Under the pieces are notes generated by a model. It saw only the letters and a list, made by a program, of their open reading frames with translations, had not been told where the DNA came from and searched no databases. DNA of 64,000 nucleotides from Patescibacteria group bacterium. GTDB lineage: Bacteria; Patescibacteriota; CPR2; UBA1875; CAIMLA01. Of this stretch, positions 14,909 through 50,653 are shown piece by piece. The DNA lies in assembly GCA_041738615.1 (NCBI GenBank), contig JBGSPL010000003.1, forward strand, positions 114,352-178,351, written 5' to 3'. Within the stretch, counting starts at the first letter, position 1; each line of letters opens with the position of its first letter. The position numbers were made by a program, and so were the translations under genes.

Positions 14909-14937
14909 GTCTTGTTTCCTTTCGGAATAGTATGGGC

Positions 14938-14989
14938 ATTGTTTACTGCAAACTATAGACACTATGGTCAACAGTTTGCAGTAAACAAT
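14938..14989. promoter_or_regulatory. Perfect 17-bp inverted repeat ATTGTTTACTGCAAACT-N18-AGTTTGCAGTAAACAAT in D4 leader (operator or RNA hairpin)
   Basis: Each arm is itself a near-palindrome (GTTTAC-T-GCAAAC); lies between promoter at 15025-15053 and the RBS. Confidence 0.6.
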
Positions 14990-15024
14990 AAGTAAAGTTA
15001 CATTTCGCTCTCACGAAACGTTAT

Positions 15025-15053
15025 ATTCTAGCATTTATATCATGTTTTGTCAA
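15025..15053 (-). promoter_or_regulatory. sigma70-like promoter TTGACA-N17-TAGAAT for D4-D3-D2 operon
   Basis: Consensus -35, 17-nt spacer, 5/6 -10, AT-rich linker inside GC-rich island. Confidence 0.55.
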
Positions 15054-15132
15054 TACTACATATGCATAGCGGGCAAGCCCGAATGCATGTGGTATGCAAA
15101 CGGACTCGCCCGCGCGGCTAGTAGCTGGACTG

Positions 15133-15702: not shown

Positions 15703-15742
15703 GAGTTACCTACCCCTCTGAGCCGCAGCTCGGTCAAAATTG

Positions 15743-15796
15743 ATTTTCCTCAACACCCAAGGGACGATGAGTCGCCCACTGCGTGCTGAGGAAAAT
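15743..15796 (-). promoter_or_regulatory. Imperfect inverted repeat (TTTTCCTCAAC...GCTGAGGAAAA) in D5 5' leader
   Basis: 11-bp arms with 1 mismatch, 33-nt spacer. Confidence 0.35.
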
Positions 15797-15823
15797 AGGT
15801 ACAAAACATACGTTTAACGTGTG

Positions 15824-27740: not shown

Positions 27741-28097
27741 TTAGTGAAACATCACATAGCCCACAAAGACTGCGCCGCTAGTGACTGCACTGATAGAGTT
27801 TACGATTGCCAGCGGCTTGTCCTTATAGAAGAAGCCATAAACGGCCCAACAGATGGAGACCATGGAGTACCCCGCCCAAGTAATCGGCGAAATCCCAGCT
27901 ACCGCCTTGGTCGTGAAGATATGAAATATTTGGACGCTCGTCATTACTGGACCAAAGGTGCCGATAGTAGCCATCGCCCTGTCTATTTTCTTTACCGAGT
28001 TCTTGTTTTGTCTATGCTTCTCAAAATATTTGTCGTGTACCGCAGTCATCATTTTTCTTAGCCTAGTCAAAACTTTTCTCCTCGTTGGCACACGCAA
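27741..28097 (-). CDS. Small membrane protein (3 TM)
   Basis: 118 aa, basic N-terminus then three hydrophobic helices. Confidence 0.45.
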   Translation of the reverse strand: MRVPTRRKVLTRLRKMMTAVHDKYFEKHRQNKNSVKKIDRAMATIGTFGPVMTSVQIFHIFTTKAVAGISPITWAGYSMVSICWAVYGFFYKDKPLAIVNSISAVTSGAVFVGYVMFH

Positions 28098-28212
28098 AAA
28101 TATGCGTCTGCCCTGTTATAAAATAAAGTAATTATTGCTCGACTAACCCAACACGACTCCTGCCGAACGCTTTTCGTAGACTATTTTAGCATTTCTACGT
28201 AGAGGTATCAAT

Positions 28213-28776
28213 CTAAAGTTTCTGCAGGGCTTCCTGAATCCCGATGTAACCGACTTCTGCGTCCCTGATGCACTCAGGAAAGGTCAATATAGCTTTTTTC
28301 TGATCAAATTTGTGGAGAACATATTTCTTAGCCTCCTCCTTGCTATAACCTCGCGAGAGCAAGTCGTCGTAATACACGCTTAATTTATCCCATGTGATAA
28401 ATTTGTAGCATTCGGCATTCTTCATAACTTCTGCTACCAAGCTATTTGGTTTCCCTGATTTGTGGTGGTCTCGAATCGCTTCCAAAATAGTCATTTGTTG
28501 CTCTTCTGGACAGCCCCAACTATCCAAATACTTTTCGGCCATGATGGCGCTGAGATCAGGGTGGTTCTTTTGGATTTCGCCTCCAACCTGCTTATCGAAA
28601 CAAATATGTGCTAAATAAAGTGCGGCCAGCACTGTTTCGGTATCCACCCCATATTTTTCCGACAGCTCCTCTCCTTTCGCGGTAGCCGTCTCTGTGAGCT
28701 CCCAAACAGGTGCCCCATTTTCTACTGTCATTTGACGCATGAGCTCTCGGGATTTCTTTACTAGGTTCGTCATACT
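28213..28776 (-). CDS. Hypothetical alpha-helical protein (start probably MTNLVKK)
   Basis: Longer ORF (to 28830) would overlap upstream gene by 55 nt. Confidence 0.45.
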   Translation of the reverse strand, partial: SMTNLVKKSRELMRQMTVENGAPVWELTETATAKGEELSEKYGVDTETVLAALYLAHICFDKQVGGEIQKNHPDLSAIMAEKYLDSWGCPEEQQMTILEAIRDHHKSGKPNSLVAEVMKNAECYKFITWDKLSVYYDDLLSRGYSKEEAKKYVLHKFDQKKAILTFPECIRDAEVGYIGIQEALQKL

Positions 28777-29242
28777 AGTAACCTTTCGGTGGTTTAGTTT
28801 TCTTGTCCGGTTTCTGTAGATCCAAGGCATCTAGCTGCCGCATTATTTCAGCGACCTCTAGCGCTACCGTTTGCGAGTGCAAACCACGAGCTTCAAGTAT
28901 ATTGTTTACTTCCTCTAGGGTTTTGTCGAAATTGTTCTTATTCTTCTGATTTATGTCTTTCCAAGCGATGTTTGCTAGCGCCTCGGCCGTCTCTTCGTGA
29001 TGCGGCACGATGCCCTTTGCAAAGAGAAATGATATTGCTGGGTAACCCAAGTACCCTGCAAAGAATGAGGCATTATCATTGGCATATATCTGCATAGTCT
29101 CTGGATTGTAACTAATGGTGTAGAATTTGCCGCGCGAAGAAGAATAGAGCTTCGCAGCGTCCCCTTCTATCTCTAGACGTCCATCGCCGATAGCACCAAG
29201 GGCTTCGTATATTTTTATTACTGGAGGCATTGGCCATTTCAT
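28775..29242 (-). CDS. Hypothetical protein
   Basis: 155 aa. Confidence 0.45.
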   Translation of the reverse strand: MKWPMPPVIKIYEALGAIGDGRLEIEGDAAKLYSSSRGKFYTISYNPETMQIYANDNASFFAGYLGYPAISFLFAKGIVPHHEETAEALANIAWKDINQKNKNNFDKTLEEVNNILEARGLHSQTVALEVAEIMRQLDALDLQKPDKKTKPPKGY

Positions 29243-29323
29243 AACCCTATTATACCGTATTATTTGCTTTGGGCGTCACTCAGCTTGCTTTACCCGCCTT
29301 CCTACTCATGGTATAAATAAGTT

Positions 29324-30370
29324 ATGAATGCAAAAAGCTTTATCAAATATCTGGGGATTATCACAATCTACGTACTGATTATGGCAGCCATCTTCAAGGC
29401 AGCCAACGTGCTCGGGATGATTGGCGCAGCAGTGCTCGTTACAATCGTGCTAGATCCCATCGTCGGCAGTATCCAAAAAGGTATGCCTAGAAAATCCCGA
29501 GGTCTTGCCATCCTTATTACATTACTCATGCTTGCTGCTGTTCTTGGGGTTTTTGGCTATATTCTCTTCATCCCTCTCGGTTCGGAGCTGTCAAAGCTAG
29601 TGACTGCCATTTCCAATCATCTAGCAAAGAATCAGGCGTCTGACATTGAGTTTCTAAAATCAAACCTAAACATTACCGATATTCAGAATATGCTGGTCGC
29701 AAATGCGCAAAAGATTCTAACTACTTCGATAGATATCACTGTAACCGTTGTGGGCAACATAGGTTCACTGATTCTGACCTTAATCACAATCATTACTATG
29801 TCTTTCTTTATGCTGATAGATACCCAGAAGATCCTCGGATACGGGAGCCATTTGCTACCGGGAAAATATCAAAAAGTTTACCGTCGATTGACTGGTGAGC
29901 TATACGGAATCACTACAAAGTACTTTGGCGGTGTATTGATAACCTCTATGATTGCGGGTCTATCTGCCTTTATCCCGCTCTTCTTTGTACACGCAGAGTA
30001 TCTCATCTCTCTAGCGTTTATCGTAGCCATCATGGACATGGTACCACTAATCGGCGCTACCATCGGGGCTGTAATTGTAATATTGGTGCTGGTGCTTACG
30101 GGGAATCCTATCGGTGCCCTCATCATGGGCGCGTACTTTCTCGCCTACCAACAGGTCGAGAATAACATCGTGATCCCTTTTGTTCAGAAGAATAACGTCA
30201 AACTATCACCTCTGGCAATATTGATTGCTCTGCTACTCGGGATATCACTTGGTGGCTTAGTGGGTGCGCTACTTGCTATCCCTGGCGCTGCGTTCATCAA
30301 GGTTGTCTTTATCGCACTACAAGAAGAGGGCCTGATCTACAAGGCGCCCGAGGACTCAGAAACTTCCTAG
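29324..30370 (+). CDS. AI-2E family transporter (PerM/YhhT-like)
   Basis: 348 aa, 8 TM, characteristic loop YQQVENNIVIPFVQ. Confidence 0.8.
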   Translation: MNAKSFIKYLGIITIYVLIMAAIFKAANVLGMIGAAVLVTIVLDPIVGSIQKGMPRKSRGLAILITLLMLAAVLGVFGYILFIPLGSELSKLVTAISNHLAKNQASDIEFLKSNLNITDIQNMLVANAQKILTTSIDITVTVVGNIGSLILTLITIITMSFFMLIDTQKILGYGSHLLPGKYQKVYRRLTGELYGITTKYFGGVLITSMIAGLSAFIPLFFVHAEYLISLAFIVAIMDMVPLIGATIGAVIVILVLVLTGNPIGALIMGAYFLAYQQVENNIVIPFVQKNNVKLSPLAILIALLLGISLGGLVGALLAIPGAAFIKVVFIALQEEGLIYKAPEDSETS

Positions 30371-30406
30371 CTACTATAGGGGTTCGGTGTATTCTAGAAC
30401 TAAATT

Positions 30407-30787
30407 CTAACGATATAAACACTCATACGGTGCTTCCCAGCTGGGAGGCGCACCGACTGGAGGCGTACAAACGTCCGTATTTATGTCATTCTTCACTGGT
30501 ACTTCATCGGCATCTACGGAGCAAACCCAACCGTTTCCAGACCCTGGCATAGAGGCCTGCCCATTATCTTGCTTTCGGGTTGGGACCAATCCTTCGCAGC
30601 ACTTTTTCTTGTCACAATCAACACAAGAGCCCCCTAGCTCCTCACCCTCCAATAGGCACTTAGTGCTTACCTTATTGTTACGCCAAGTTGTAGTTCCAAC
30701 ATAAACTAGTACCCCGGCTAGGACAACGACGACGAGTATAGATAAATATATTATGTCTTTTTTGTTCATACAGATACTATAGCACAA
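30407..30787 (-). CDS. Small secreted Cys-rich protein
   Basis: 126 aa, signal anchor, 12 Cys. Confidence 0.5.
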   Translation of the reverse strand: MCYSICMNKKDIIYLSILVVVVLAGVLVYVGTTTWRNNKVSTKCLLEGEELGGSCVDCDKKKCCEGLVPTRKQDNGQASMPGSGNGWVCSVDADEVPVKNDINTDVCTPPVGAPPSWEAPYECLYR

Positions 30788-31005
30788 ACAAAAATAATGC
30801 CTACAAAAAGCATTATCTTATATTTTGGTGGGCCTGGTATCAAATAATTTACACCTTATCTTAGAAGAGACTAGCCGCTGGCGAACCATTCTTAGTATTG
30901 AGTATGAGAGATATAAGCTTGAAAGGAGTTACGCTCCCTTGTGTTAGTTGCACTAGTGATTACTAGTAATTCTCCACGTAGGGTCGGCGTAGAAAAAGTA
31001 AAACT

Positions 31006-31428
31006 ATGTCATTAGCAGATAGGTTCCACCCAACAAAATATGATGAGAGGTACATACACTTTGCTTTATGCGTGAGTAGTATGGACACTGTCGCTGCTGC
31101 CCTTGATGAACTATACAACAAAGGCTATTCGCCTGGTAACAAGATTGGGAGAGTTAAAAATGAAACCGAGGCTGAACATCTACTTGAGATACTCAATACC
31201 CCCGGAGCGCTTACCTGTGTCCTAAACGTAAAGGGACTAGAAGCACAGTGGCCAAGATTTGAGTACATTAAGTCCAACCTAACAGGCTATATTTACTACT
31301 TTTTATGTAGTGACTGTGGCAAGAGAGTAAAGTTTCTCTACCACACTAACTCGAGTTATGGGTATAAGTGCAGAGACTGTCAGAGGCTTCGATATCCTCC
31401 AAACAAGAAGTACCTATATAACCTATAG
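31006..31428 (+). CDS. Hypothetical protein with C-terminal zinc ribbon
   Basis: CSDCGKRV...CRDCQRL. Confidence 0.45.
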   Translation: MSLADRFHPTKYDERYIHFALCVSSMDTVAAALDELYNKGYSPGNKIGRVKNETEAEHLLEILNTPGALTCVLNVKGLEAQWPRFEYIKSNLTGYIYYFLCSDCGKRVKFLYHTNSSYGYKCRDCQRLRYPPNKKYLYNL

Positions 31429-31677
31429 GTCCTCGAGCATCACTGACAGATCAACCTTCATCGCTTTTGACATTCTCCACACAGTATAAACACTCGGCGA
31501 GTACCTTCCCGTTTCTATGTGTCCAATGTAGGCGCTGTCATACCCAGCAGCTTCTGCTAACTTTTCCTGAGTAAAGCCATTCGCCTTTCGAACTTCCTTA
31601 ATTCTTAAGCCTATCTTCTTAGCGAAGTCTTTCTTCTGCTTGGCCTTTTCTAAAATATCTAAATCTCTAAACTCCAT
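31423..31677 (-). CDS. XRE-family helix-turn-helix transcriptional regulator
   Basis: 84 aa; FTQEKLAEAAGYDSAYIGHIETGRYSPSVYTVWRMSKAMKV. Confidence 0.8.
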   Translation of the reverse strand: MEFRDLDILEKAKQKKDFAKKIGLRIKEVRKANGFTQEKLAEAAGYDSAYIGHIETGRYSPSVYTVWRMSKAMKVDLSVMLEDL

Positions 31678-31743
31678 AACAAGATTATCGGTGTATTCGT
31701 AGATAATTCTTATGGCGTAGACATAGACTTTTCACATAATAAG

Positions 31744-32124
31744 TTGTATATTTTGCCTATGAGTAAAACAAAGTACTACAGTTACGTTTTTGTGGGGATA
31801 CTGTTAGGCGCTATGGCGGGACTACTCTTCACGTTCGTTAAGGTGAACTACTTTGAGAAAACAAAAAGCGGAATGTTTGCTGTACACAAAGAGTGTGTCC
31901 AGTGGAATGAAGCCTGTATCGACGCGTGCGAAGACTCTCGCGACGACGTTCGGGGCGGTAGCTGTAGTAGTTGCTGCATATTAGAAGATGACGTTGTAGA
32001 AACCCTTGGAGACCGACTTTCTTCAGAAGCAAAACTATACGGCCTTGTCTTTGCTTTTGGCCCTGGCTTACTTGTGGGGCTTGGACTAGCAGAAGATAAG
32101 AGAAAAAGGATAGAAAATGTTTAA
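31744..32124 (+). CDS. Hypothetical small membrane protein
   Basis: 126 aa. Confidence 0.4.
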   Translation: MYILPMSKTKYYSYVFVGILLGAMAGLLFTFVKVNYFEKTKSGMFAVHKECVQWNEACIDACEDSRDDVRGGSCSSCCILEDDVVETLGDRLSSEAKLYGLVFAFGPGLLVGLGLAEDKRKRIENV

Positions 32125-32302
32125 ACAAATGGATCGCTCAAGAAAGTTTGAGTTGTTTATAGGTATTCCTATAGGAGTTACCCTTATCAACATACTTAAA
32201 CCTGGTGCCCTAATAGCAATGGGGATATTTCTATTGTTCTTCTTTGGTGCCGGCCTTATTGGAGCCATAACAGACAAGGACCAGGATGAAAAAGCCAAAT
32301 AA
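32117..32302 (+). CDS. Hypothetical small membrane protein
   Basis: 61 aa, overlapping start/stop with neighbours. Confidence 0.35.
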   Translation: MFKQMDRSRKFELFIGIPIGVTLINILKPGALIAMGIFLLFFFGAGLIGAITDKDQDEKAK

Positions 32303-32525
32303 ACAAGCGCTAGATGATCTCTACGAGTTTGGGCTTGATTTGTTCAGTAACGAACCAACAACTAAACCGTACAATATTGACTACAAGCCAGGTTACGGAC
32401 CAAATGGGAGCGCTCTTCAAAGACTCTTGCATCGCTGCTTAATGGGTCTTATAGTTATCGCTTTTCTGGCGGTTCCTGTTATTACCTTGCTGGGTATTTG
32501 GGCGCTACTGACGAGGTTACTTTAA
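32286..32525 (+). CDS. Hypothetical small membrane protein
   Basis: 79 aa. Confidence 0.35.
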   Translation: MKKPNKQALDDLYEFGLDLFSNEPTTKPYNIDYKPGYGPNGSALQRLLHRCLMGLIVIAFLAVPVITLLGIWALLTRLL

Positions 32526-32562
32526 TTTGCTTATGGCTTGTCAAAGGGATTAAAATATAGCT

Positions 32563-32889
32563 ATGACAAAAATGTTAGAAGAACTATCTAAAGACTTCGT
32601 GCCGAAAACGCCCCTAGGGCATATTTGGAATATAATTCTTAGTTTTTTTGCCCTAAGTATTCACCTTTCGATAGCTGTATTCGTTATGAAAGCCTTCGCA
32701 CAGAGAGTTTATATGACCGACCTGGATAGTCTTTACCTCGTCTGGTTTTGGCTGCCCTGGGTGGCCTTTGCTGTGTGGGTACCGATTGGGATAAAATTGA
32801 AGAAAATCAAACACCCAGTTTTAACCTCATTCGCAGTAGTTATTTGGTTAATTGCATGGTTCGGTGGACTAGTTTCGGCGGTACAGTAG
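32563..32889 (+). CDS. Hypothetical small membrane protein
   Basis: 108 aa, 3 TM. Confidence 0.4.
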   Translation: MTKMLEELSKDFVPKTPLGHIWNIILSFFALSIHLSIAVFVMKAFAQRVYMTDLDSLYLVWFWLPWVAFAVWVPIGIKLKKIKHPVLTSFAVVIWLIAWFGGLVSAVQ

Positions 32890-32939
32890 AGGTGAATGAC
32901 CACTAGTCATAGTGGAAAGAAATTGTTTTCTCTGTTATA

Positions 32940-33959
32940 ATGACGAATATGAAGGAAGTTAATGTGGCCAAAGAAAAAATAACTGACCTAATAAAAGAAC
33001 TCGAAGTTGAAAGAAAATCAAAAGTTATCGTCTTTATTACGGGCGATAAACAGCCAAACGAACAGTTTGGAACTCAGGTCCACCCTGAGCAGTTGGTTTT
33101 CTTCCGCAAAACTCTTGAAGATATGGGTTCGACTGATAAGATATCACTTGTTTTAGACACTAGGGGTGGAGCTCTTGAAATGCCTTGGCCACTAGTAAAC
33201 CTAATAAGAGAATACTGTAAACGATATGAAGTTATCATTCTAGAAAAGGCACTAAGTGCCGGAACGCTAATCGCTTTAGGCGCCGATAAGATCGTTATGC
33301 AGCCATTCTCACACTTAAGCCCAGTTGACCCTGCTACTTTTATTCCCAATGGCAACCCTAATGTTCTAGAAAAGCTTGAGATAGAAGACATTATAGGTTT
33401 CATCGACTTCGCAAAAGAAAAGGTTGGCATAGCCGAACAGGCAGCTCTTTCAGACGTTATGAAGGAACTAACTAAGCAGATTAAACCGACACTCTTAGGC
33501 TCGGTTAACAGAACATACGCCCTCATAAGAAAGCTTGCTAGACAGCTACTGTCCCTGCACGGAAGCAAACTCACCGAGAAACAAGTCAATGAGATTACAG
33601 AGCACCTGACCCAGAAGCTTTACTCCCACAGTTACCTGATTAACAGGAAAGAGGCAAAAGAGATTATAGGCTTCGGTAATATTATTGAGAAATCTACTGG
33701 AAAGACACGTGAAATATCAACAAAGATAATGGACTACTACAGAGACCTGATGGATGTTGATAAAGAGTTTAACCCACCGGCTTTACTTGCAGACAAAGAG
33801 ACTGTTGACTACTCGGTCGTAGCAGCTGTGGTCCAAAGTTCAGCAAAGAAGTTCTCGTTTACAAACAAACTTAGACTTACCAAAATATCCGACCCTTCAG
33901 GAAGACTAAATATTAACTTAGAAGTCATCGAGAGAAAATGGTTAGAGGAAAAAGAATAG
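32940..33959 (+). CDS. SDH-family (ClpP/crotonase-fold, S49-like) serine protease
   Basis: 339 aa; VFITGDKQ...LVLDTRGGALEM...SAGTLIALGADKIVMQPFSHLSPVDP. Confidence 0.6.
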   Translation: MTNMKEVNVAKEKITDLIKELEVERKSKVIVFITGDKQPNEQFGTQVHPEQLVFFRKTLEDMGSTDKISLVLDTRGGALEMPWPLVNLIREYCKRYEVIILEKALSAGTLIALGADKIVMQPFSHLSPVDPATFIPNGNPNVLEKLEIEDIIGFIDFAKEKVGIAEQAALSDVMKELTKQIKPTLLGSVNRTYALIRKLARQLLSLHGSKLTEKQVNEITEHLTQKLYSHSYLINRKEAKEIIGFGNIIEKSTGKTREISTKIMDYYRDLMDVDKEFNPPALLADKETVDYSVVAAVVQSSAKKFSFTNKLRLTKISDPSGRLNINLEVIERKWLEEKE

Positions 33960-34186
33960 GAGTAACTATGTTTAGTACTTGTAACACTGTGTGCGCGTCT
34001 AATAATAAAGTCCTTACTTTCAGAAGTTCGACTGCAAATGGTAAAGTCGAAACACATTATAATGTTATTGAGCCTTATATTATAAGCAAAACTAATATCG
34101 TCAATAATCAATCGGCCACCGAAGAGATGGACAATGATTTTGATGTGAAGATTAACAAACAATTTTTTCAAACAAAGAATATTTAG
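33938..34186 (+). CDS. Hypothetical protein
   Basis: 82 aa, overlaps protease stop. Confidence 0.3.
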   Translation: MVRGKRIGVTMFSTCNTVCASNNKVLTFRSSTANGKVETHYNVIEPYIISKTNIVNNQSATEEMDNDFDVKINKQFFQTKNI

Positions 34187-34189
34187 TAA

Positions 34190-34693
34190 ATGTACATTCC
34201 TAGCAGAGAAATTGATAAAACCATATTTTATCAAGGGGATGTTATAAAGAACTTCCCCTTTTTTGTTTTGTCTGAGCTTGAAGAAAAAGTAGCTGCCATA
34301 AAAGAAGCTGGCGAGGGTACAATTGAAATTAAATCGAAGCTAGTTGACGTTATGATACTTTCTCAAACCTGCGATATCCAACGCCGAGACCAAGTCATCG
34401 TAGCTCCAATAGCTTCAATGGCATCTGGGGTAGAGAGCGGTGAATTGAAAGCAAACATACTGGATAATATCCGTGGGCGAAAAATCAACTTCCTATTTTA
34501 CCTCCCTGAAAGCCCTGATCTTATCCCAGAGTCTTACTGTAATCTTCAGCTCATCTACTATGTTTCTCCTGCGTTACTAAATAGTTTTGCAGACAATAAA
34601 GCAGTTACGCTAAGCGATTGGGGAAGACACCACCTTAGCTGGGCCCTCAGTAATTACTTTGGACGCCCAATAATTAGCAAGGTAAGGGACTAG
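34190..34693 (+). CDS. Hypothetical protein
   Basis: 167 aa. Confidence 0.45.
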   Translation: MYIPSREIDKTIFYQGDVIKNFPFFVLSELEEKVAAIKEAGEGTIEIKSKLVDVMILSQTCDIQRRDQVIVAPIASMASGVESGELKANILDNIRGRKINFLFYLPESPDLIPESYCNLQLIYYVSPALLNSFADNKAVTLSDWGRHHLSWALSNYFGRPIISKVRD

Positions 34694-35049
34694 TCTTTTG
34701 ACTTTAGTGGGGATGGTTTGATATAATATAGCTACAATTTGATTTTCGAAATGAGGTGTCCTGCGTGATCGCGTGGGCATTTTTTAATTTCGAGAGGCGT
34801 TGTGTGGGTCAAGGGCTAAACAAAACTGATTATGAGACACTTGAGAATGAGCAGGCGGAGGCCTGGGCCAGTCTGCTCTATTCTATGTTCCGCAAGAAGA
34901 AACAACGTGAAGCTTTGCAAAGCCCTGGAGGTAATAATATAATGGTATTGGACACAAATAACGACGAAGCAAGAAGGCAGTGATGGCAGTCTCTTATTCC
35001 TTGTCGTTAAGGAGTGTCCAGAGGCTGCCATCTTTGTTAGGAGTATTCT

Positions 35050-36635
<1,586 letters not shown>

Positions 36636-36678
36636 TAGACCGGTAGATTGTAGCAAATACAGGCTCAGATTTCAAGGT

Positions 36679-41874: not shown

Positions 41875-43655
41875 TGGATCAGAGTAAAATACGTAATTTC
41901 TGCATTATTGCCCATATTGATCATGGTAAATCGACCCTCTCGGATCGCTTTCTTGAAGTCACAGGCACTATTGATAAGCGCGATATGCATGCCCAGCTTC
42001 TCGATACCATGGAACTCGAGCAGGAACGCGGTATCACCATCAAGCTGCAACCGGCAAGAATGGAATACCAGGGGCACATTCTGAACCTTATCGATACTCC
42101 CGGGCACGTGGATTTTACCTATGAAGTTTCCCGTTCACTCGCAGCCGTAGAGGGTGCCATCCTTGTTGTCGATGCCTCACAGGGAATCGAAGCGCAAACA
42201 CTCTCCAATATTTATCTAGCCCTCGAGCACAACCTCGAGATTATACCTGTACTGAATAAAATTGACCTACCCCATGCCGAACCTGAAAAGGTAGCGCAGG
42301 AGATTATCGACCTCCTCGGTGTGAAACGCGAGGAGATCATCCTGGCTTCCGGTAAAACTGGCGAGGGTGTGGCTGCCATTCTAGAACGCGTCATAGAGAA
42401 AGTTCCAGCACCCAAGGGAGACACGAAGAAACCTTTTCGCGCCCTAATCTTTGACTCGTTCTACGATACCTACAAAGGCGTCGTTGCCTACGTTCGCGTC
42501 ATTGACGGCGCCCTACCAAAGGGCCAAAAGCTCCATATGCTCGGCAGCAAATCTGGTGCCGAAAGCATCGAGATTGGCTACATTACGCCCAAATTTGTCC
42601 CAGAGAATCAGGTTAAGACTGGTGAGATCGGCTACATCGTCACTGGTCTACGCGACGTTTCGGGAGCACCTGTCGGTGATACCGTCACGCTTGCGAGCGA
42701 CAAGGAAGTCGAAATGTTACCAGGATACAAGAAGGTAAAGCCCTTCGTTTTTGCAGGTATCTACACCACCGAGGGAGATGATTATCCCCTACTTCGTGAG
42801 GCACTCGGCAAGCTGAGTCTCTCCGACTCCTCTCTGGCTTATGAACCAGAGGTTTCCAGCGCTCTCGGTTTCGGTTTCCGCTGCGGATTTCTCGGCCTGT
42901 TACATATGGACATCGTGAAGGAAAGGCTCGAACGCGAATTCAACCTGGACCTGCTGGTCACCATACCCTCTGTCGCCTACGAGATTGTCAAAACCAACAA
43001 GGAAGTTACCATTATAAACAGCCCGGCCGAGCTGCCCAACATCATGCACATTCAAGAAATACGTGAGCCATGGGTAAGGGTAGATATCGTAACGCCGAGT
43101 GATTACATCGGCGTCGTCATGGAGCTCATTACCAATAGACGCGGCATCTTCAAGACCATCGATTACCTCGAGGAGACTAGAGTGATCGTAAAATGCGAGA
43201 TGCCCCTCTCCCAGATAGTTACCGACTTCTTCGACGTACTGAAGAGCATCTCCTCTGGGTATGCCAGTATGAGCTATGAATTTATCGAATACCGCGCCGG
43301 GGATCTGGTGAAGGTAGACATCTACATTGCCGAGATAGTCGTCGATACACTTTCACTACTCGTTCACCGTAGTGAAGCTCAGACGGTAGGCAAACAAGTC
43401 GTCGAAAAGCTAAAGTCGCTAATTCCAAAACAACTCTTCAAGGTAGCCTTGCAGGCTGCGATTGGCGGTAAGATAATTGCTCGGGAGGACATCTCCGCGA
43501 TGCGCAAGGACGTCACAGCCAAACTTTATGGTGGCGATGTAACTCGTAAGAATAAGCTGCTGAACAAACAAAAAGAAGGCAAAAAAAGGATGAAAAAATT
43601 CGGGAAGGTCGAAATTCCCTCTGGTGTCTTCATGGAACTACTAAAAAAGGACTGA
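41874..43655 (+). CDS. lepA: Elongation factor 4 (LepA)
   Basis: IRNFCIIAHIDHGKSTL, LIDTPGHVDF, LepA C-terminal domain. Confidence 0.95.
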   Translation: MDQSKIRNFCIIAHIDHGKSTLSDRFLEVTGTIDKRDMHAQLLDTMELEQERGITIKLQPARMEYQGHILNLIDTPGHVDFTYEVSRSLAAVEGAILVVDASQGIEAQTLSNIYLALEHNLEIIPVLNKIDLPHAEPEKVAQEIIDLLGVKREEIILASGKTGEGVAAILERVIEKVPAPKGDTKKPFRALIFDSFYDTYKGVVAYVRVIDGALPKGQKLHMLGSKSGAESIEIGYITPKFVPENQVKTGEIGYIVTGLRDVSGAPVGDTVTLASDKEVEMLPGYKKVKPFVFAGIYTTEGDDYPLLREALGKLSLSDSSLAYEPEVSSALGFGFRCGFLGLLHMDIVKERLEREFNLDLLVTIPSVAYEIVKTNKEVTIINSPAELPNIMHIQEIREPWVRVDIVTPSDYIGVVMELITNRRGIFKTIDYLEETRVIVKCEMPLSQIVTDFFDVLKSISSGYASMSYEFIEYRAGDLVKVDIYIAEIVVDTLSLLVHRSEAQTVGKQVVEKLKSLIPKQLFKVALQAAIGGKIIAREDISAMRKDVTAKLYGGDVTRKNKLLNKQKEGKKRMKKFGKVEIPSGVFMELLKKD

Positions 43656-43684
43656 TTTCTCATGTCCTTTGTGCCGAGTACTAT

Positions 43685-44089
43685 TTAGTTTAGCCCGTGA
43701 TCGTGGAAGCAGTCGGCATAGGCCTTGTCTACTGTGATTATATGGTTGGTGAGCCAGCTCTTCATGAAGTCCATGACCTTCATCGCATATTCGTCTTCTT
43801 GCCCAACATAATTCTGCTGAAAATCTGCCACTGTGTCACGGAACTTTTGGTGAACTCCCTTGTGTGAAGCCGAGTCGGGATAGTCAAACTTGTCAAAGTA
43901 TTTCTCTTCGGTTGCAAAGTGGTAGTTCGCATAGGCCGCAAGCTGGTCTAAAATATCGCCAAGGATAATTTCTTCGCTCCCTACCTCTACCGTGTCGTAT
44001 AAATCGTTGATAAGTAAGACGAACTTTTTATGTTGCTCGTCTATCTCGGCGACTTCTACTTCATAATCTGGTAACCAATTGATGTACAT
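43685..44089 (-). CDS. Hemerythrin-like metal-binding protein
   Basis: 134 aa; H/E/D ligand spacing (IDEQHK..., HF..E, H..F, H.D). Confidence 0.7.
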   Translation of the reverse strand: MYINWLPDYEVEVAEIDEQHKKFVLLINDLYDTVEVGSEEIILGDILDQLAAYANYHFATEEKYFDKFDYPDSASHKGVHQKFRDTVADFQQNYVGQEDEYAMKVMDFMKSWLTNHIITVDKAYADCFHDHGLN

Positions 44090-44276
44090 AAATACATTTT
44101 ACAATATTTTCTACCACTAGCGCTAGTTAATATGAATAATATTGTTGAACAAATGCCGACCTCAAGCTATAATTACTGCGAAGCTATGTGCTTGGTCCCT
44201 TTACAGATCATTCGCACGGAGGGGCTGAGTACGAAAACCTATACGAATTTTCGAATCCAACTTGTTGGGAATTTTT

Positions 44277-44331
44277 TATATACCCTACCCTGCTTTTTCT
44301 GATATTCATAAAGGGAAGGGTAGGGTATATA
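44277..44331. promoter_or_regulatory. Perfect 15-bp inverted repeat TATATACCCTACCCT-N25-AGGGTAGGGTATATA upstream of island F gene F1
   Basis: Exact reverse complements; AT-rich junction at left edge of GC-rich island. Confidence 0.55.
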
Positions 44332-44437
44332 AGCGACAAGCCGAGGAGGCGAGACGGAGTTGAGAGGTGTACCGTTCTTTTATCAAGACTTGGTTTCGCC
44401 AGCCGGCGAACAGGGTCCCGGAAAGGGGGCGAAAGGT

Positions 44438-46615
44438 ATGTTCTGCGAATCCGCTGACAGTATCACGGTCGGGAAGCGTTCCTTCAGCTTGAGCTACAAG
44501 ACGAACCAAGGGATCATTGCTCTTCTGGAAGGCGCCGAAGGTCCGATGTCTCCGGGAGACAAGAAGAAAGCATACGACTTCATGGATCAGCGGCGCCAGG
44601 AACTCCTTACGCGCCTCGATGACCTCTTCTCAGAAGAGGCTTTCATGAAACTCCAAACGGAGGCTATGAGGCTTCTGCTCACCAATCCCAGCTACAAGGA
44701 GGAAAAGGCAGTAATCTGCCAGATTCTCGGCAACGAGCTCTGGACGATCTACGGCTCATTCGTCAACGGCCGCTACCCAACCCAGATACTCCAAGGACAC
44801 GACGACTCCATCGGCAAACTGGCCAAGGAAACGGAGCATCACAAGCTCGAGATGGTCTACAACCTTCTGGAGCTATGCTACGTGGTGGTCCTGCACATTG
44901 CCGGTATGCACCTGAAGACCGAAGGTGTCATGAGTGAGTGCCACTGTTGGCCTACGCTTCCTCTGAACACCTGGGTTGCAGGGGAGGTCAAAAGCCGTTG
45001 CAATGGTGTGAAGTCACTCCTGGCAAAACGTCGCTATGACCCCAAGGGTTTCCAGTCGGAGCACATTCCTAAGAGCAGCTCCAATGGAACTCGTGGACAC
45101 AAGCGCGCTGCACTTCCGCCTGCAGAGCTCCCCTACGAAGATGGGGATGACGACAGCGATGTTGTCGGCTCGCAAGAAGAAACACTCGACGGCCTCGAAC
45201 TTGAAACCGACTTTGAAGGTCATGACGACGCCGACGATGTATCACCAGCAGAACCCGAGACCGTACACGAACCTGCTGTGGTAGCGAATGTCGAGAAACC
45301 ATATCAGCTAGGTTTCGAGACGGTTCCGCAGGAGTTTCGTGACCACTTTCTGGAAGTACTGAAGTGCACCGATGGTGTCGATGGAGAGCATCCGCTCTCT
45401 ATACACCGCAAGCAGCTGAGCGAGGCGGCGCGGTCTCACCTCCCCGAAATGGGAGTAGCAGGGCTCGTGGTGCCAAACCGCACTGCTGCGCCTGAACCGT
45501 TCCGCCTGTGGTTCACTCTTGCTCCGGAGTACGAAGATCTCATTACAGAGGCTCAATCTGGATCTCTAGACCCATCCATCGAAGCCAAGGAGGCACCGAC
45601 CATGGGTAAGCGGCAACGTCCAGTGCTAGAAGTACTGGCACTGATTCCCGACGACCTGAAGACGTCCGTCGAGGACTGCCTTCGTTGCATCAAGCGACAC
45701 GAGGCTCCCTACAACATCGTGAAGGGGGACCTTGCGGAGAAGACGTTCGGAGACATTCCCAAGCTCCTTGAGCTGGGAATTCTCCGCGGGGCGGGGCAGC
45801 ACAGCCTCTCTTCCCCCTTCACCGCGCTCGTGAAGCCGTACCAAGGAGGACACCTCAAGGGCATGGTCTATACCGGGCCTGCGCAGGAGTCGTCCCCGGC
45901 ACCTGAACCGCCCAGTGTTCCCTCTGCAACGAGCGGCCCCGACGCGAAGTTCCGTCCCGGTGGCAGACGGCCACCGCAGCTGGGCATCGATTCCGTTCCC
46001 GAAACAGCTCGCGAGCTGTTTGTACGGATCATAAAGGTCGCAGAATCTCCGGACGCTATCGTCACCGGACAGCGGCGAACAGGCCTCTTCCACAAGACCG
46101 ATCTTCGGAACGCCGACGCAGCAAGGCTTGTCGAGCTTCTCGACCTAGGACTGCTGCGCTACACCCAGTCCAGCTACCAGTGGCACGTCAAGTCCGAGTA
46201 CTTCGACTTGATCCGCGAAGCCCAGCAGGGCAAGCTGGACTACATCCTCGAGGGCTCTCCGGCAGAACCGACTGGCGCACCCTCGCCCCCGAATCAGGGG
46301 TCCGAGCCCACACCGCCGGTCCCGACACCACCGGCAGGAGCGGGGATCGGGGGCAACCTGGTTCCCTGCACATCTCTTCCTGAATTCGGAGGACTCCAGT
46401 TCGGACTCACACCTGAACTGGTGCTGGTTCTCATAGGACTCAGTGACGTCCAGTTCAATGAGGAGGGCCAGCTCGTGGTCATCTCCAACAACGTCACGGA
46501 CGAGGTTGGCTGGAACGACGAGCTCGTGAGTGAGCTTCTCGCCACCGGTGCGCTACGCTGCACTGATGCGGCTCTTTGCTTCGGGCTCGTCATCGACGCC
46601 AAACTCACCCTCTAG
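44438..46615 (+). CDS. Island F gene F1: large acidic hypothetical protein with three ~85-aa internal repeats (start uncertain: TTG 44360 or ATG 44438)
   Basis: GC-rich; RBS AAAGGGGGCGAAAGGT-ATG; repeats (T/S)VP(Q/E)xxR(D/E)xF...EY(E/F)DLI(T/R)EAQ(S/Q)G(S/K)LD. Confidence 0.5.
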   Translation: MFCESADSITVGKRSFSLSYKTNQGIIALLEGAEGPMSPGDKKKAYDFMDQRRQELLTRLDDLFSEEAFMKLQTEAMRLLLTNPSYKEEKAVICQILGNELWTIYGSFVNGRYPTQILQGHDDSIGKLAKETEHHKLEMVYNLLELCYVVVLHIAGMHLKTEGVMSECHCWPTLPLNTWVAGEVKSRCNGVKSLLAKRRYDPKGFQSEHIPKSSSNGTRGHKRAALPPAELPYEDGDDDSDVVGSQEETLDGLELETDFEGHDDADDVSPAEPETVHEPAVVANVEKPYQLGFETVPQEFRDHFLEVLKCTDGVDGEHPLSIHRKQLSEAARSHLPEMGVAGLVVPNRTAAPEPFRLWFTLAPEYEDLITEAQSGSLDPSIEAKEAPTMGKRQRPVLEVLALIPDDLKTSVEDCLRCIKRHEAPYNIVKGDLAEKTFGDIPKLLELGILRGAGQHSLSSPFTALVKPYQGGHLKGMVYTGPAQESSPAPEPPSVPSATSGPDAKFRPGGRRPPQLGIDSVPETARELFVRIIKVAESPDAIVTGQRRTGLFHKTDLRNADAARLVELLDLGLLRYTQSSYQWHVKSEYFDLIREAQQGKLDYILEGSPAEPTGAPSPPNQGSEPTPPVPTPPAGAGIGGNLVPCTSLPEFGGLQFGLTPELVLVLIGLSDVQFNEEGQLVVISNNVTDEVGWNDELVSELLATGALRCTDAALCFGLVIDAKLTL

Positions 46616-46633: not shown

Positions 46634-46690
46634 CAAGGGGCTACCTGCACAGCACTCGAGAGAGTGGCTGCCTGCTGGTAGCCCTCTTTC
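46634..46690 (+). terminator. Long-hairpin terminator copy 1 (GGGGCTACC...GGTAGCCC CTCTTTC) after F1
   Basis: ~85% identical to 47312-47367. Confidence 0.6.
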
Positions 46691-46700
46691 TTTACCTATA

Positions 46701-46736: not shown

Positions 46737-46782
46737 ACTGCACGAAACTATGTACCTGTCAGCAACCGACCAAGGGGGATCC

Positions 46783-47304
46783 GTGAATTGCACGTTGCAA
46801 GTCGCCACCATCGTACTTCTTGCGATGCTCGAGGCAGACAAGCTGCCTATCGAGATGATTCCTGACGAGTTTGAGTACGAGATTTACCTGATTGCGCGTG
46901 AGCACGCTCTTACAACCCAGAACTACGAGTTCGCTCTCCATCTCTCCGAGAGTAGAGAGCGTTCACGCTGGATCAAGGAAACCAACGGAGACCGACTGAT
47001 AGTGATATGGGAAGCTCTCGGTTGGGTCGAGGTCGGATTCCATAGTCCGTTCTGGTCCGGCAAGAAGCGCTATGTCCTCCCGCGCCAATACCGCTCCTAC
47101 CCACCATGCGAAAAGCGTGAAATGGACGAAGCGGAGTTGGATCAAGCGCTAGAACAGGCCCGTGAGAGCCTGTCCAAGGGCTATCGCATCACGTTCTCGA
47201 GAGGCTGCTCGCGCGAAACAGCCTGGCGTTTGTTCGAAGCCGGGTTGGTATCCTGCAACCCGCCGAGACAGCCCAACATGGTTCTCGCACCTGAATGCCG
47301 CTAG
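46783..47304 (+). CDS. Island F gene F2 hypothetical protein (~173 aa from GTG 46783; alternative ATG 46753)
   Basis: RBS CAAGGGGGATCC-GTG; upstream promoter; ORF open from 46576 but that region holds F1's terminator. Confidence 0.4.
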   Translation: MNCTLQVATIVLLAMLEADKLPIEMIPDEFEYEIYLIAREHALTTQNYEFALHLSESRERSRWIKETNGDRLIVIWEALGWVEVGFHSPFWSGKKRYVLPRQYRSYPPCEKREMDEAELDQALEQARESLSKGYRITFSRGCSRETAWRLFEAGLVSCNPPRQPNMVLAPECR

Positions 47305-47311: not shown

Positions 47312-47367
47312 CAAGGGGCTACCCGCACAGACTCGAAGAGAGGCTGCCTGCTGGTAGCCCCTCTTTC
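47312..47367. terminator. Long-hairpin terminator copy 2 after F2 (shared with convergent VanW gene)
   Basis: Divergent copy of 46634-46690. Confidence 0.6.
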
Positions 47368-47379
47368 GTATCTACTTAA

Positions 47380-49098
47380 TTAGTGCGGATATTTATCGGG
47401 ACTGTCATACTTGCTTGTAAACTTATCGTTGTCCGTGAGTTTACCTGCTGCATCTAAGATATGTCGGTAAAAGGTGGCTGTGAATGATTTCGGTCCGCGC
47501 GCCTCCTGCTCCGTAATGCTCGAGGTAACCTGTTCGACCGTATCAACCTGACCAGTCGCATCGGCATTACCCGAGAAAGAAACCTTACCTGGCTTCTTGG
47601 TGCCATAAAAGTCAAAGTAAACCATATTCCCCACTACGCTAGTCTGTATCAGAATATAATGGCCAGTATCGTTTTTGAACCGGAGGTCTGGAGTCGGTAG
47701 ATAAATCGTGGCATCCACGCCGTACGGTTTGTAATACACAATCGGATAGGCATGATTGTGCCTCTCTAGTATCGGCAGTCCTGCATTTAGCGCCGCACGA
47801 AAGGCAGTTGATGATACCTGGCAAAGTCCGCCTCCGTACTCTGGCACTGTTTTATCGGCAAGGATTACGAGCTCTGGCAAGTACCCAGTACTTGCCTCTA
47901 CTGGCCCTAGGATACTATTGAAGGAAACATCTTCGTCCGGCTTTATGAGGACGCCGTTGAACTTACTAGCCCCCGTCTTGTAATTGTGCTGCCGATTTAC
48001 AGGCGAGCCACTGGCATCAGTCCAACCACGAGAAATTTGCTCGGTAAGACCCAGTTCAGCCATATTTGCCTCACTTACGCTCGGGTTCTTCGCAGAGAGA
48101 GCAAGCTTTACGGCGTGAGTATCCTTTACTGCAGACTGAATGTCATTGATTAGCCTCGTAGTATCGAGCTCTTGCCCCACCACAGAGGGACTCTTTACCA
48201 CCATCTTGCCGTCTACATTGTCTAGAACCACGTTCGCTGCTGCCCTGTTTACCTTCGCAGCGACATCCTTCGCATAAGTGTAGACCATATTCTGATCTAG
48301 ATAGTAGTAGCCATCATCCTCGCGGGGCAATAATGTCGGTAGTTCTACCATTGTAGTTGCGGCTACAGGAGTGATTTTGAGCCATTTACGAAGGTTTTCG
48401 GTGCCAATCTGCTCCTCTTTACCCCCAGACACACTCACTGGGCGCTGCAATGCCTGCTGTACGCTCACTACGAGTGCTGAGGCATCGTTTGCGGTCAACA
48501 TCGGTGAGATAGGGGCAATACGAAGGTTGATAGTGCTAGCGAGCCTAGATAGGCCCTCACGGAGGGCTACACGACTCTCGGGAAGTAACAACCGCTGCCC
48601 GCTCTTCTCTGGAGCGATAATCCCATTTTCCAAGTTTGTAATCTTAGCATCTTCGGGGGCAATAGCTAGCGCATCATATCTCTCGAGAAGCGTATTGCTC
48701 ATGCCTTCGTCATTGTACGTAAGGTCCGCATTGTGACTCATACCGAGGTACTTGGAAAGCCCAAAGTACCCTCTTTCTTCGCGTGCAAGCGCCTCAACTA
48801 GGGTTTCTTCTACCTTCAGCTCCTTCACAAAGCTAGAAACAGATTTATCCTGGCCAGAAACACTAACCTCGACTGCCGAATACTGCTTCCAGCGCTGCTC
48901 GAGCAGTGTCTTCGCGTCTGCCTCGGTCTTGCCCGATACAACGACCCCTGAAATCTCGCTACCTAGTGCAAAACGGTGCTCAAAAACGATTGGTTGTAGT
49001 ATCACGAGCACCAGGTAAGCCCCAAAGGTAATACCAAAAGCGGCCACGACCCTAGGAAGTAGCCGAGATTTATCCACTTTACTAGTACCCCCTACCAT
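47380..49098 (-). CDS. VanW/YoaR family protein with N-terminal TM
   Basis: 572 aa; VanW motif PEYGGGLCQVSSTAFRAALNAG. Confidence 0.8.
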   Translation of the reverse strand: MVGGTSKVDKSRLLPRVVAAFGITFGAYLVLVILQPIVFEHRFALGSEISGVVVSGKTEADAKTLLEQRWKQYSAVEVSVSGQDKSVSSFVKELKVEETLVEALAREERGYFGLSKYLGMSHNADLTYNDEGMSNTLLERYDALAIAPEDAKITNLENGIIAPEKSGQRLLLPESRVALREGLSRLASTINLRIAPISPMLTANDASALVVSVQQALQRPVSVSGGKEEQIGTENLRKWLKITPVAATTMVELPTLLPREDDGYYYLDQNMVYTYAKDVAAKVNRAAANVVLDNVDGKMVVKSPSVVGQELDTTRLINDIQSAVKDTHAVKLALSAKNPSVSEANMAELGLTEQISRGWTDASGSPVNRQHNYKTGASKFNGVLIKPDEDVSFNSILGPVEASTGYLPELVILADKTVPEYGGGLCQVSSTAFRAALNAGLPILERHNHAYPIVYYKPYGVDATIYLPTPDLRFKNDTGHYILIQTSVVGNMVYFDFYGTKKPGKVSFSGNADATGQVDTVEQVTSSITEQEARGPKSFTATFYRHILDAAGKLTDNDKFTSKYDSPDKYPH

Positions 49099-49319
49099 TA
49101 GTCCCTCGCTAGTAACTCGTTGATTACCGTCTTTGCTAGCGCTTCTCTATCCTTGCGAGCATCCTCGTCTCTTTTGGCTACCAGCACTAAAACATCGCCC
49201 TCTTTACTGTGCTCAGGAAGCTTCTCCTTGGGCCAGAGTATTTGCTCTCCATGATGGGTAAGTACGGCGTAATCCCCCTCGAAGCGGTCTATAGTAGTTT
49301 TAAGTTCGTTAATAGTCAT
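49098..49319 (-). CDS. Small hypothetical protein (DUF3006-like), co-transcribed with VanW gene
   Basis: 73 aa, stop/start overlap. Confidence 0.45.
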   Translation of the reverse strand: MTINELKTTIDRFEGDYAVLTHHGEQILWPKEKLPEHSKEGDVLVLVAKRDEDARKDREALAKTVINELLARD

Positions 49320-49382
49320 GATTACATTCTATATCAACTAGTACTTAATTCCAAACGAAGCAATTAATTACAAAATGCAACG

Positions 49383-49411
49383 CGCCCCGGGTCCTGAAAC
49401 GGAACCGGGGC
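49383..49411 (-). terminator. Island G terminator CGCCCCGG...CCGGGGCG followed by T-rich on minus strand
   Basis: 8-bp GC stem, 14-nt loop. Confidence 0.55.
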
Positions 49412-49439
49412 GGTTGTGTTGCTTGTTGTGCGCGACCTA

Positions 49440-49562
49440 GATGTCGACGAGGGTGGCCCAATCGGTGGGCACCGCATCTACATCTGAGGGAGTAATGTCG
49501 ACCGACTCACTGTCGACAGTGACACTATCCTGTGGGCTCTTGTCATCGGCGGCCATGTGGTT
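49440..49562 (-). CDS. Island G micro-ORF (40 aa, acidic)
   Basis: Perfect AAGGAGG RBS 11 nt before ATG; downstream of G1 in same orientation; short, so tentative. Confidence 0.3.
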
Positions 49563-49586
49563 ACCTGCCTCCTTGGTGGAAAGTGG

Positions 49587-50045
49587 CTAAACCGTGACCA
49601 TCGCCGAGTCGGCCACAAGGACGTTCTGCCAGTGCGTAGCCGCGTACGGATCCGGGATGTTCTTCCGCTGCCAGAAGATGACGAAACGGATCTTGTCCAC
49701 GTCGATGCCGTTGGCGAGGAGATGCTTCTTGATCTCCTCAACCGCCTCGGGAAGCTTGGCCCAAGCTTCGGGCTCATCCATGGGACGAGCCCGGCACTCC
49801 TCGTGCGCGGCCAGCGAGATGACGCTGACGCCGAGGTGATTGACCGCAAAGGCAAGCCGCTCATGCAGAGCGAGACGCCTGTGCTCTGTGGCTCCGCCGA
49901 GGATAACCCCGATGGGACCAAACTCGTCACACGGGATGACCTGATCGGCGCCGAACCTGGTGACGAGTGCCATTCTCATTGCACCCAACGTGTCGCGCGG
50001 ATCGCTGCAAGCGATATTCGCGACAACCAACTTCTCTCCGGCCAT
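49587..50045 (-). CDS. Island G gene G1: GC-rich xenolog of neighbouring beta-carbonic-anhydrase-like (CxDxR...HxxC) protein, ~152 aa
   Basis: RBS GAGAGGGGAACGC-ATG; IACSDPRD...AAHEECRARP aligns with native CMDGR...AHQGCAKN in 50194..50619. Confidence 0.5.
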   Translation of the reverse strand: MAGEKLVVANIACSDPRDTLGAMRMALVTRFGADQVIPCDEFGPIGVILGGATEHRRLALHERLAFAVNHLGVSVISLAAHEECRARPMDEPEAWAKLPEAVEEIKKHLLANGIDVDKIRFVIFWQRKNIPDPYAATHWQNVLVADSAMVTV

Positions 50046-50109
50046 GCGTTCCCCTCTCGTCGAACTGACAATGTGCAACACAATTCCAGATTATACACTA
50101 TTTTTGCAA

Positions 50110-50134
50110 AAAGTCCAGCTTTTGGCTGGACTTT
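50110..50134 (-). terminator. Terminator AAAGTCCAGC-caaaa-GCTGGACTTTTT for native 50194..50619 gene; TATAAT follows on minus strand
   Basis: Perfect 10-bp stem + T5 on minus strand; putative G1 promoter TGGACT-N16-TATAAT overlaps. Confidence 0.55.
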
Positions 50135-50193
50135 AAGGCGTAAATTTGTAATGCAATGGATTCTGAAATTAGTTCAGAATGACGCTGAATATA

Positions 50194-50619
50194 TTAGGCT
50201 TCGATAAGCTTGTCGGCTATGTGGTGAATCTCCCAATCAAGATCTGTGTTCTTGGTAACCCAAAGACCGGTGATGCGGACACCCACTGGTAATCCCCATT
50301 TGGTAGCAAGAATCTCTACTGACTCTTTGAGCTCTGCAAGCTGCTCCTCGTCCGAGATTGGATTCTTGGCGCAACCCTGATGAGCGACGATGGCAACATT
50401 GCGAGAGTTGTGTCCATTGATGGAGATAAGAGTCTCTGCCTTGTAGTGCTCTACGATAGCGGCATCGCCTTTTACTATCATATTTGTAGGACCGGCTGGG
50501 TTTGGTGCATCCACAACGTCAAGCGCAAACTGTTCCTTCATCCACTTTGCCACTGGTTCCTGGGTACGGCCATCCATGCAGTTGAGCATGGTTCCGAATT
50601 TGGTATTTGTATCAGACAT
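50194..50619 (-). CDS. Native small Cys-Asp-Arg / His-x-x-Cys protein (beta-carbonic-anhydrase-like zinc ligand pattern)
   Basis: 141 aa; LNCMDGR and VAHQGCAKN motifs; homologous to island G gene. Confidence 0.45.
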   Translation of the reverse strand: MSDTNTKFGTMLNCMDGRTQEPVAKWMKEQFALDVVDAPNPAGPTNMIVKGDAAIVEHYKAETLISINGHNSRNVAIVAHQGCAKNPISDEEQLAELKESVEILATKWGLPVGVRITGLWVTKNTDLDWEIHHIADKLIEA

Positions 50620-50653
50620 AAAAATATCCTCCTAGATTACTTTAGTAGATTGT

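Follow-up and report, generated by a model that had tools for sequence, protein, structure and literature searches.

A strain-restricted orphan gene of an uncultured Candidatus Saccharibacteria bacterium encodes three old tandem repeats of a possibly winged-helix-like type

The gene F1 lies on contig JBGSPL010000003.1 of a Patescibacteria assembly (GCA_041738615.1), within a 64,000-nucleotide stretch that is referred to here as the window, and encodes a protein built around three divergent tandem repeats of ≈90 residues each, for which no relative was detected among ~15 billion proteins. Our preferred reading, to which we assign a probability of roughly 45%, is that F1 is an acidic, cytoplasmic, and lineage-restricted accessory gene product of an uncultured Candidatus Saccharibacteria bacterium that functions as a winged-helix-like, beads-on-a-string binder. 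All coordinates refer to the window, and F1 residues are counted from the TTG codon at position 44360.

Smith–Waterman comparisons, hidden Markov model (HMM) envelopes, and alignment place the repeat units on the forward strand at residues 313–410 (R1, 45296..45589), 420–505 (R2, 45617..45874), and 537–632 (R3, 45968..46255), with boundaries taken from the HMM envelopes after subtraction of the 9-residue offset of the searched open reading frame (ORF). R1 (310–410) and R3 (535–635) align with a score of 99 (z = 16.6), a value matched by none of 500 shuffles, and R2 aligns to R3 with a score of 56 (z = 6.4), which a single shuffle in 500 reaches. The R1–R2 pair is weak when taken alone (score 36, z = 2.6, 8 of 500 shuffles), R2 being the most divergent unit; profile tests close this gap. 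The HMM constructed from R1 and R3 scores R2 above 1000 of 1000 shuffles, and those constructed from R2 and R3 and from R1 and R2 assign 16.8 bits to R1 and 30.5 bits to R3, respectively, with 0 of 1000 shuffles as high in either case. In a masked self-comparison of the whole of F1, the best off-diagonal match pairs residues 296–421 with 518–644 (score 112), and a second alignment, shifted by one unit, pairs 304–527 with 411–653 (score 100), which is the signature of a tandem array. Chance similarity or low-complexity bias, to which the weak R1–R2 pair might point, has next to no probability and is counted as already refuted, given the R1–R3 score, the profile tests, and the fact that the matches avoid the Pro-rich linkers and fall within structured segments of non-repetitive sequence. 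A preliminary description of this DNA had proposed three divergent tandem repeats, to be doubted if no internal similarity proved significant; the similarity is significant (R1 versus R3, z = 16.6), and all three methods bear the repeats out. The peptides quoted in that description are found as stated, with N-terminal matches LGFETVPQEFRDHFLEVLK at residues 317–335 (nucleotides 45308–45364), LALIPDDLKTSVEDCLRCIK at 426–445, and LGIDSVPETARELFVRIIK at 541–559, and C-terminal matches EYEDLITEAQSGSLD at 390–404 and EYFDLIREAQQGKLD at 613–627. The proposed unit length of ~85 residues has the right scale, with the actual units closer to 86–98 residues. A MAFFT alignment of R1, R2, and R3 contains 12 invariant columns, chiefly Pro, Gly, and hydrophobic residues, and reveals a 10-residue deletion in R2 in the loop that follows helix 1.

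The F1 ORF (44360..46615, forward strand) extends over 751 codons from the TTG at 44360, with a Shine–Dalgarno-like GAGGAGG upstream at 44344–44350; the public annotation (P0001) starts the protein at the ATG at 44438 and gives it 725 residues. The guanine plus cytosine (GC) content of F1 is 58%, distributed over the three codon positions as 0.66/0.42/0.66, a normal coding pattern, and the similarity of R1 to R3 is confined to the F1 frame, where it scores 102 versus 26–30 in the other five frames. By these measures, F1 is a real protein-coding gene. Nucleotide identity between R1 and R3 is 0.47/0.57/0.28 by codon position, 20 of the 32 identical residues use different codons, and the internal copies have diverged to ≈32% identity with saturated synonymous sites. 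Third codon positions are thus at the random level, from which we conclude that the duplication is old and that selection on the protein has maintained the copies. Judged from the alignments and codon positions, the repeats are homologous, and their divergence is old.

Beyond the three repeats that were originally described, both ends of the protein retain traces of additional, degenerate units. A 20-residue segment at 30–49 (ESADSITVGKRSFSLSYKTN, 44447..44506, forward strand) resembles R3 residues 562–581 (ESPDAIVTGQRRTGLFHKTD) with z = 5.6 and none of 5000 shuffles as good, and looks like the relic of a further unit at the N-terminus. At the opposite end, residues 679–751 (46394..46612, forward strand) form a candidate degenerate fourth unit that carries LQFGLTPE followed by ELLATGALR, matching the succession of the two main motifs of the unit, and lacks the terminal helix motif; its profile score is marginal (reached by 16–29 of 1000 shuffles, p ≈ 0.02–0.03), and a 32-nucleotide stretch within it shares 72% DNA identity with R3. 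The repeat HMM found no copy outside of F1 in a six-frame translation of the window. The downstream gene ORF2 had appeared by eye to share the motifs IPDEFE and EAGLV with the repeats, and this candidate was rejected at z ≤ 1.5 against shuffles (Smith–Waterman).

The remainder of the protein is organized around these units. Residues 1–62 include the relic unit and are followed by an all-helical region (63–215, 44546..45004, forward strand; secondary structure from a low-confidence model), which shares no similarity with the repeats by Smith–Waterman or HMM comparison. A basic segment with an isoelectric point (pI) of 11.1 (216–252, 45005..45115, forward strand) then leads into an acidic segment (253–312, 45116..45295, forward strand) with 22 Asp/Glu and no Lys/Arg, so that the acidic stretch noted earlier in front of the repeats is real and is located at residues 261–293. 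The preliminary description also had Pro/Ser-rich linkers between the units, which holds for the R2–R3 linker that extends to residue 536 (45875..45967, forward strand) and for the linker between R3 and the C-terminal region (residues 633–678, 46256..46393, forward strand; 13 Pro in 48 residues), and not for the 19-residue R1–R2 stretch, which is of ordinary composition. The pI of whole F1 is 4.95, and those of R1, R2, and R3 are 4.9, 8.0, and 6.1, respectively. The F1 sequence contains no signal peptide, no recognizable secretion signal, and no convincing membrane helix; the hydropathy maxima (~1.6, at residues 165–183 and 676–694) include charged residues and are read as buried helices rather than membrane segments.

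Searches for relatives of F1 returned F1 itself and nothing else, both from a word-indexed search of 5.8 billion proteins and from a full HMMER scan of 1.84 billion cluster representatives that stand for the ~15 billion proteins. Pfam gave no match for whole F1 at E ≤ 1 or for single units at E ≤ 10, NCBIfam, PHROGs, and PADLOC gave none for F1, and a phmmer search of PDB sequences with F1 found nothing, with the repeat profile returning from the same set only an unrelated match at E = 1.1. Likewise, 50,697 phage and 72,556 plasmid records gave no tblastn match to F1, and no F1 peptide pattern turned up in GTDB genomes, IMG/VR, or JGI metagenome contigs. When the 5.8-billion-protein index was searched with a profile of the repeats, nothing came back and F1 itself was missed, an outcome that we put down to the word index and do not count as evidence. 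The one further copy of F1 sits on a Logan contig with 100% identity to the window across 11 kb, which marks it as the same strain. The classical short solenoid repeats (TPR, ankyrin, HEAT, and LRR) consist of 20–50-residue units, in contrast to the 86–98-residue, mixed α/β, and linker-separated units of F1, and no Pfam repeat family matches F1. The earlier statement that no family is recognizable is thus upheld across Pfam, NCBIfam, PHROGs, PADLOC, PDB sequences, and the 1.84 billion representatives; on the strength of these sequence searches, F1 is a genuine orphan gene, and the comparisons made here place it in no known family.

We turned to structure prediction for the fold of the unit. 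A full-length AlphaFold2 model made without an alignment was unusable, with a predicted local distance difference test score (pLDDT) of 37. R3, modeled with the three F1 units as a three-row alignment, reached a pLDDT of 65.4 and a predicted template modeling score (pTM) of 0.57, with predicted helices at 12–24, 28–32, 43–45, 48–59, and 76–86 and predicted strands at 41–42, 63–66, and 71–74 of the model. These elements would follow an α1-β1-α2-α3-β2-β3 order, with two extra helices, the same order as is found in the winged helix-turn-helix (wHTH) domains of the MarR, ArsR, and GntR families. The unit would also share with wHTH domains a hydrophobic helix that ends in LxxxGLL and is followed by a β-hairpin (RLVELLDLGLLRYTQSSYQWHV), and these three families dominate the weak Foldseek matches of the R3 model. 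The majority of the top 50 Foldseek matches in the PDB are winged-helix (WH) proteins, among them MarR, GntR, ArsR/SmtB/CadC, the Cdc6 WH, MukE, JetABC chains, cullin WHB, RTP, Sso10a, and CapW, none of which is significant. The F1 unit departs from the wHTH families in that neither profile searches nor structural comparison gave a significant match, in that its putative recognition helix has no conserved basic residues, and in that it is longer than the ≈60–70 residues of these domains, with an extra conserved C-terminal helix. On the strength of this model, we give a winged-helix-like fold about even odds, and F1 probably represents a new sequence family of winged-helix-like modules. The preliminary description had suggested that such repeats are often binding modules and that AlphaFold and Foldseek be applied to a single repeat; the largely winged-helix and uniformly insignificant matches that this produced are compatible with a binding module and do not establish one.

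Several observations weigh against a winged-helix-like binder. The best Foldseek match in the PDB has E = 0.087, with template modeling scores of 0.36–0.45, or 0.3–0.45 by the wider figure, the best match in BFVD has E = 0.044, which is not significant, and no winged-helix Pfam family matches the single units even at E ≤ 10. F1 is carried by one strain only, which leaves no between-species comparison, and its neighbors (a hemerythrin-domain gene, an orphan 184-residue ORF, and VanW) give no hint of function.

F1 may nevertheless work like one of the few known tandem-WH proteins, with which it can be compared by analogy. The C-terminal half of SelB consists of four tandem WH domains that bind the selenocysteine insertion sequence (SECIS) RNA, each of 45–60 residues and directly abutting, behind an EF-Tu-like GTPase (PMC4605307). 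F1 resembles SelB in a predicted set of three to four WH-type modules in one polypeptide, which serve SelB as a binding arm, and differs from it in having longer units and long flexible linkers, no sequence similarity, and neither an EF-Tu-like GTPase nor SelB-wing Pfam domains, F1 having no Pfam match of any kind. The eukaryotic DNA- and RNA-binding protein STK19/TWH19 comprises three divergent WH domains, the nature of which was invisible to sequence methods until the structure was solved (PMC10806857). F1 would resemble it as a protein composed in essence of three divergent WH domains; those of STK19/TWH19 are intimately packed without long linkers and carry basic DNA-binding patches, unlike F1, to which they have no sequence relation. 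A third comparison is provided by subunits of structural maintenance of chromosomes (SMC) complexes. ScpB, MukE, and JetB are acidic tandem-WH subunits that bind protein (the kleisin) rather than DNA. MukE–MukF and JetABC chains are among the weak Foldseek matches of R3, at ranks 8, 9, and 38, none of them significant; the neighboring genes are LepA, hemerythrin, the orphan ORF, and VanW, with neither SMC nor kleisin genes among them, and F1 has no Pfam, NCBIfam, or PADLOC match that would place it with these subunits.

The function that we propose follows from this predicted anatomy. F1 would be translated as an acidic (pI ≈ 5) cytoplasmic protein restricted to its lineage, with a helical N-terminus, a basic and an acidic patch, and three tandem α/β modules on flexible, largely Pro/Ser-rich linkers, flanked by the relic unit on the N-terminal side and a possible degenerate unit on the C-terminal side. 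The units stem from old internal duplication, and selection on the protein has retained them. Several small modules on flexible linkers, preceded by charged low-complexity segments, typify a multivalent binder or scaffold, and we infer that F1 is such a beads-on-a-string protein in which every module would hold on to a partner, either protein or nucleic acid. The neutral-to-acidic units and the lack of conserved basic residues in the would-be recognition helix lean slightly toward the binding of protein or structured RNA, and argue against classical sequence-specific DNA binding. The charge pattern fits, by analogy, protein-binding WH domains such as those of ScpB and MukE, and it would also suit the binding of RNA in the manner of SelB.

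F1 resides at a variable locus. The genes in this part of the window are, in order, TilS, FtsH, MurJ, LepA, the hemerythrin-domain gene (43685–44089, reverse strand), F1, ORF2 (46750–47304, forward strand, 184 residues), VanW (47380–49098, reverse strand, converging with ORF2), and the F-type ATP synthase. Of the relatives, the nearest one found (L003; 82% nucleotide identity in LepA) is a metagenome-assembled genome of an uncultured Candidatus Saccharibacteria bacterium, in which the hemerythrin gene is followed directly by an ORF2 homolog (a 173-residue ORF) and VanW, without F1; tblastn of F1 at the loci of the relatives found no remnants. The homology between the window and L003 stops at 44106 and restarts at 46702 by blastn or 46631 by eye, so that the segment missing from L003 (44107..46630, ~2.5 kb) includes the promoter, leader, and ORF of F1. 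The composition of F1 is foreign, with 58% GC and a GC content of 0.66 at third codon positions versus 47–50% GC in neighboring housekeeping genes, and F1 coincides with the GC maximum of the window. This offset and the absence from L003 identify F1 as an accessory gene that is specific to its strain or species and occupies a variable site. Downstream of F1 lies a terminator-like hairpin with a T-rich tail (46634..46694, forward strand), a ~95% copy of a second terminator hairpin located between the converging ORF2 and VanW (47312..47370, forward strand); the hairpins themselves span 46634–46684 and 47312–47360. The idea that this hairpin is a dispersed repetitive extragenic palindromic (REP)-like or miniature inverted-repeat transposable element (MITE)-like sequence was dropped, as only two local copies are present in the window. 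The spacer in L003 opens with AACCAAGGGG...CACAG, the same start as the hairpin after F1. L003 has one full terminator hairpin and this apparent decayed copy (AACCAAGGGG..CACAG) at the point where F1 would end. The decayed hairpin slightly favors loss in L003 over recent gain in the strain studied here.

Upstream of the F1 ORF, a promoter-like site (TTGAAC-17-TATAAT, 44145..44173, forward strand; consensus match only) precedes a near-perfect palindrome or hairpin in the leader, with 27-nucleotide arms and a 3-nucleotide loop (44275..44333, forward strand; ΔG = −31.4 kcal/mol, z = −7.8). The palindrome occurs once in the window and lacks a T-run, and is thus not a terminator. Its reading as a known RNA element was discarded, since Rfam gave noise only and viral contigs contained no copy. 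The palindrome at 44275–44333 is a candidate for a possible regulatory site. This element bears on a different and unlikely explanation, in which F1 is a DNA-binding leftover of a mobile element (a regulator, a nucleoid-associated protein, or a replication or partition factor) whose tandem WH domains recognize recurring DNA sites; the palindrome in the F1 leader could be one of these and would then serve autoregulation. The winged-helix-like model of the unit would suit this proposal, as do the strong upstream palindrome, the foreign composition, the absence of the gene from L003, and the binding of nucleic acids by the known tandem-WH proteins SelB (PMC4605307) and STK19/TWH19 (PMC10806857). 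It is opposed by the helix that precedes the hairpin, in which the alignment of R1, R2, and R3 reveals no conserved basic residue of the kind expected of a DNA-binding winged helix, by the pI values of the units and of whole F1 given above, by the 2.5-kb segment, which encodes no integrase, no transposase, and no further gene of a mobile element, and by the lack of any PHROGs, phage, or plasmid match.

The same locus speaks to a still less probable view, that F1, though intact, is a nonfunctional remnant of transferred DNA, or else a misassembled foreign fragment, rather than a working gene of the organism. Its occurrence in a single strain, foreign composition, and lack of relatives would be expected from such a fragment; a frame that stays open for 751 codons at 58% GC and the frame-specific conservation of the repeats would not, and the AT-rich promoter region looks native, with a terminator copied from the neighboring host locus. 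The Logan assembly, an independent one, shows the same context, though it probably derives from the same or related reads.

A further reading, which we consider doubtful, holds that the unit is a new fold or otherwise not a winged helix, and that F1 is an epibiont interaction factor delivered to or acting on an actinobacterial host. This would account for fast evolution, orphan status, and a higher, host-like GC content, and is consistent with the 58% GC, the Pro-rich linkers, the lack of a significant structural or sequence match to anything, and the assignment of the organism to the Saccharibacteria, a group described in PMC8386444 as living on bacterial hosts. F1 has, however, no signal peptide or recognizable secretion signal, no actinobacterial or other relative was found among the 15 billion proteins, and the predicted topology and weak structural matches would favor a winged helix over a new fold. 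We hold it to be similarly improbable that F1 is the only sampled member of an old family from a barely sequenced gene pool, for example Saccharibacteria phages or mobile elements, with the ~90-residue unit a new domain type that would serve either in contacting the bacterial host or in some process peculiar to Saccharibacteria. The reading of F1 as an accessory, winged-helix-like binder remains the one that we prefer.

Other variable features surround the locus. ORF2 has no Pfam, NCBIfam, PHROGs, or PADLOC match and is found in two genomes only, those of the window and L003, with 73–75% identity and 55% GC in both. Both relatives carry a 199–201-residue gene without a Pfam match between lepA and the hemerythrin gene (L001, 11841–12446; L003, 11831–12430), where the window has merely 29 bases (43655–43685). 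Two Pro_CA_2 genes lie, according to gene calls on L004, in the part of the window that separates the DUF3006 gene from the ATP synthase operon (49100–50650), and the same interval of L003 (15624–19153) contains a 152-residue gene and a 1029-residue lipase-like gene, making this another variable spot. The more distant relative L001 has an uncalled 101-residue ORF with an HNH-like Cys/His pattern (13516–13821, reverse strand) in a 1.2-kb gene-free gap next to its hemerythrin–DUF1653 genes. Farther upstream in the window, a stretch of low GC content (28000–36650, 40–45%) ends at a 517-residue serine recombinase with a Resolvase N-terminal domain (35050–36603), the 3′ end of which overlaps a tRNA gene on the opposite strand (36563–36635) just before tilS; the stretch also encodes a ClpP-like SDH protease (32940–33959) and an AI-2E transporter, and may represent an element that integrated next to the tRNA. 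A second GC-rich patch (12900–15800, 53–56%) harbors several reverse-strand ORFs of 146–189 residues without Pfam matches, two of which (13026–13595 and 15133–15702) have N-terminal hydrophobic anchors.

Many genes of Saccharibacteria and other ultra-small episymbionts have no known function, and orphan genes are frequent in Saccharibacteria. In such episymbionts, strain-specific genes at variable loci are obvious candidates for a role in host interaction. What is unusual about F1 is that its absence from ~15 billion proteins is combined with clear age and protein-level selection: an orphan can be demonstrably old and under selection on its protein, with internal paralogs replacing external homologs as the comparison set. 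The practical value of F1 is modest until a ligand or a phenotype is found. If the winged-helix reading is true, the small set of known tandem-WH proteins would gain a member with a beads-on-a-string architecture; otherwise, the F1 unit would be a new domain.

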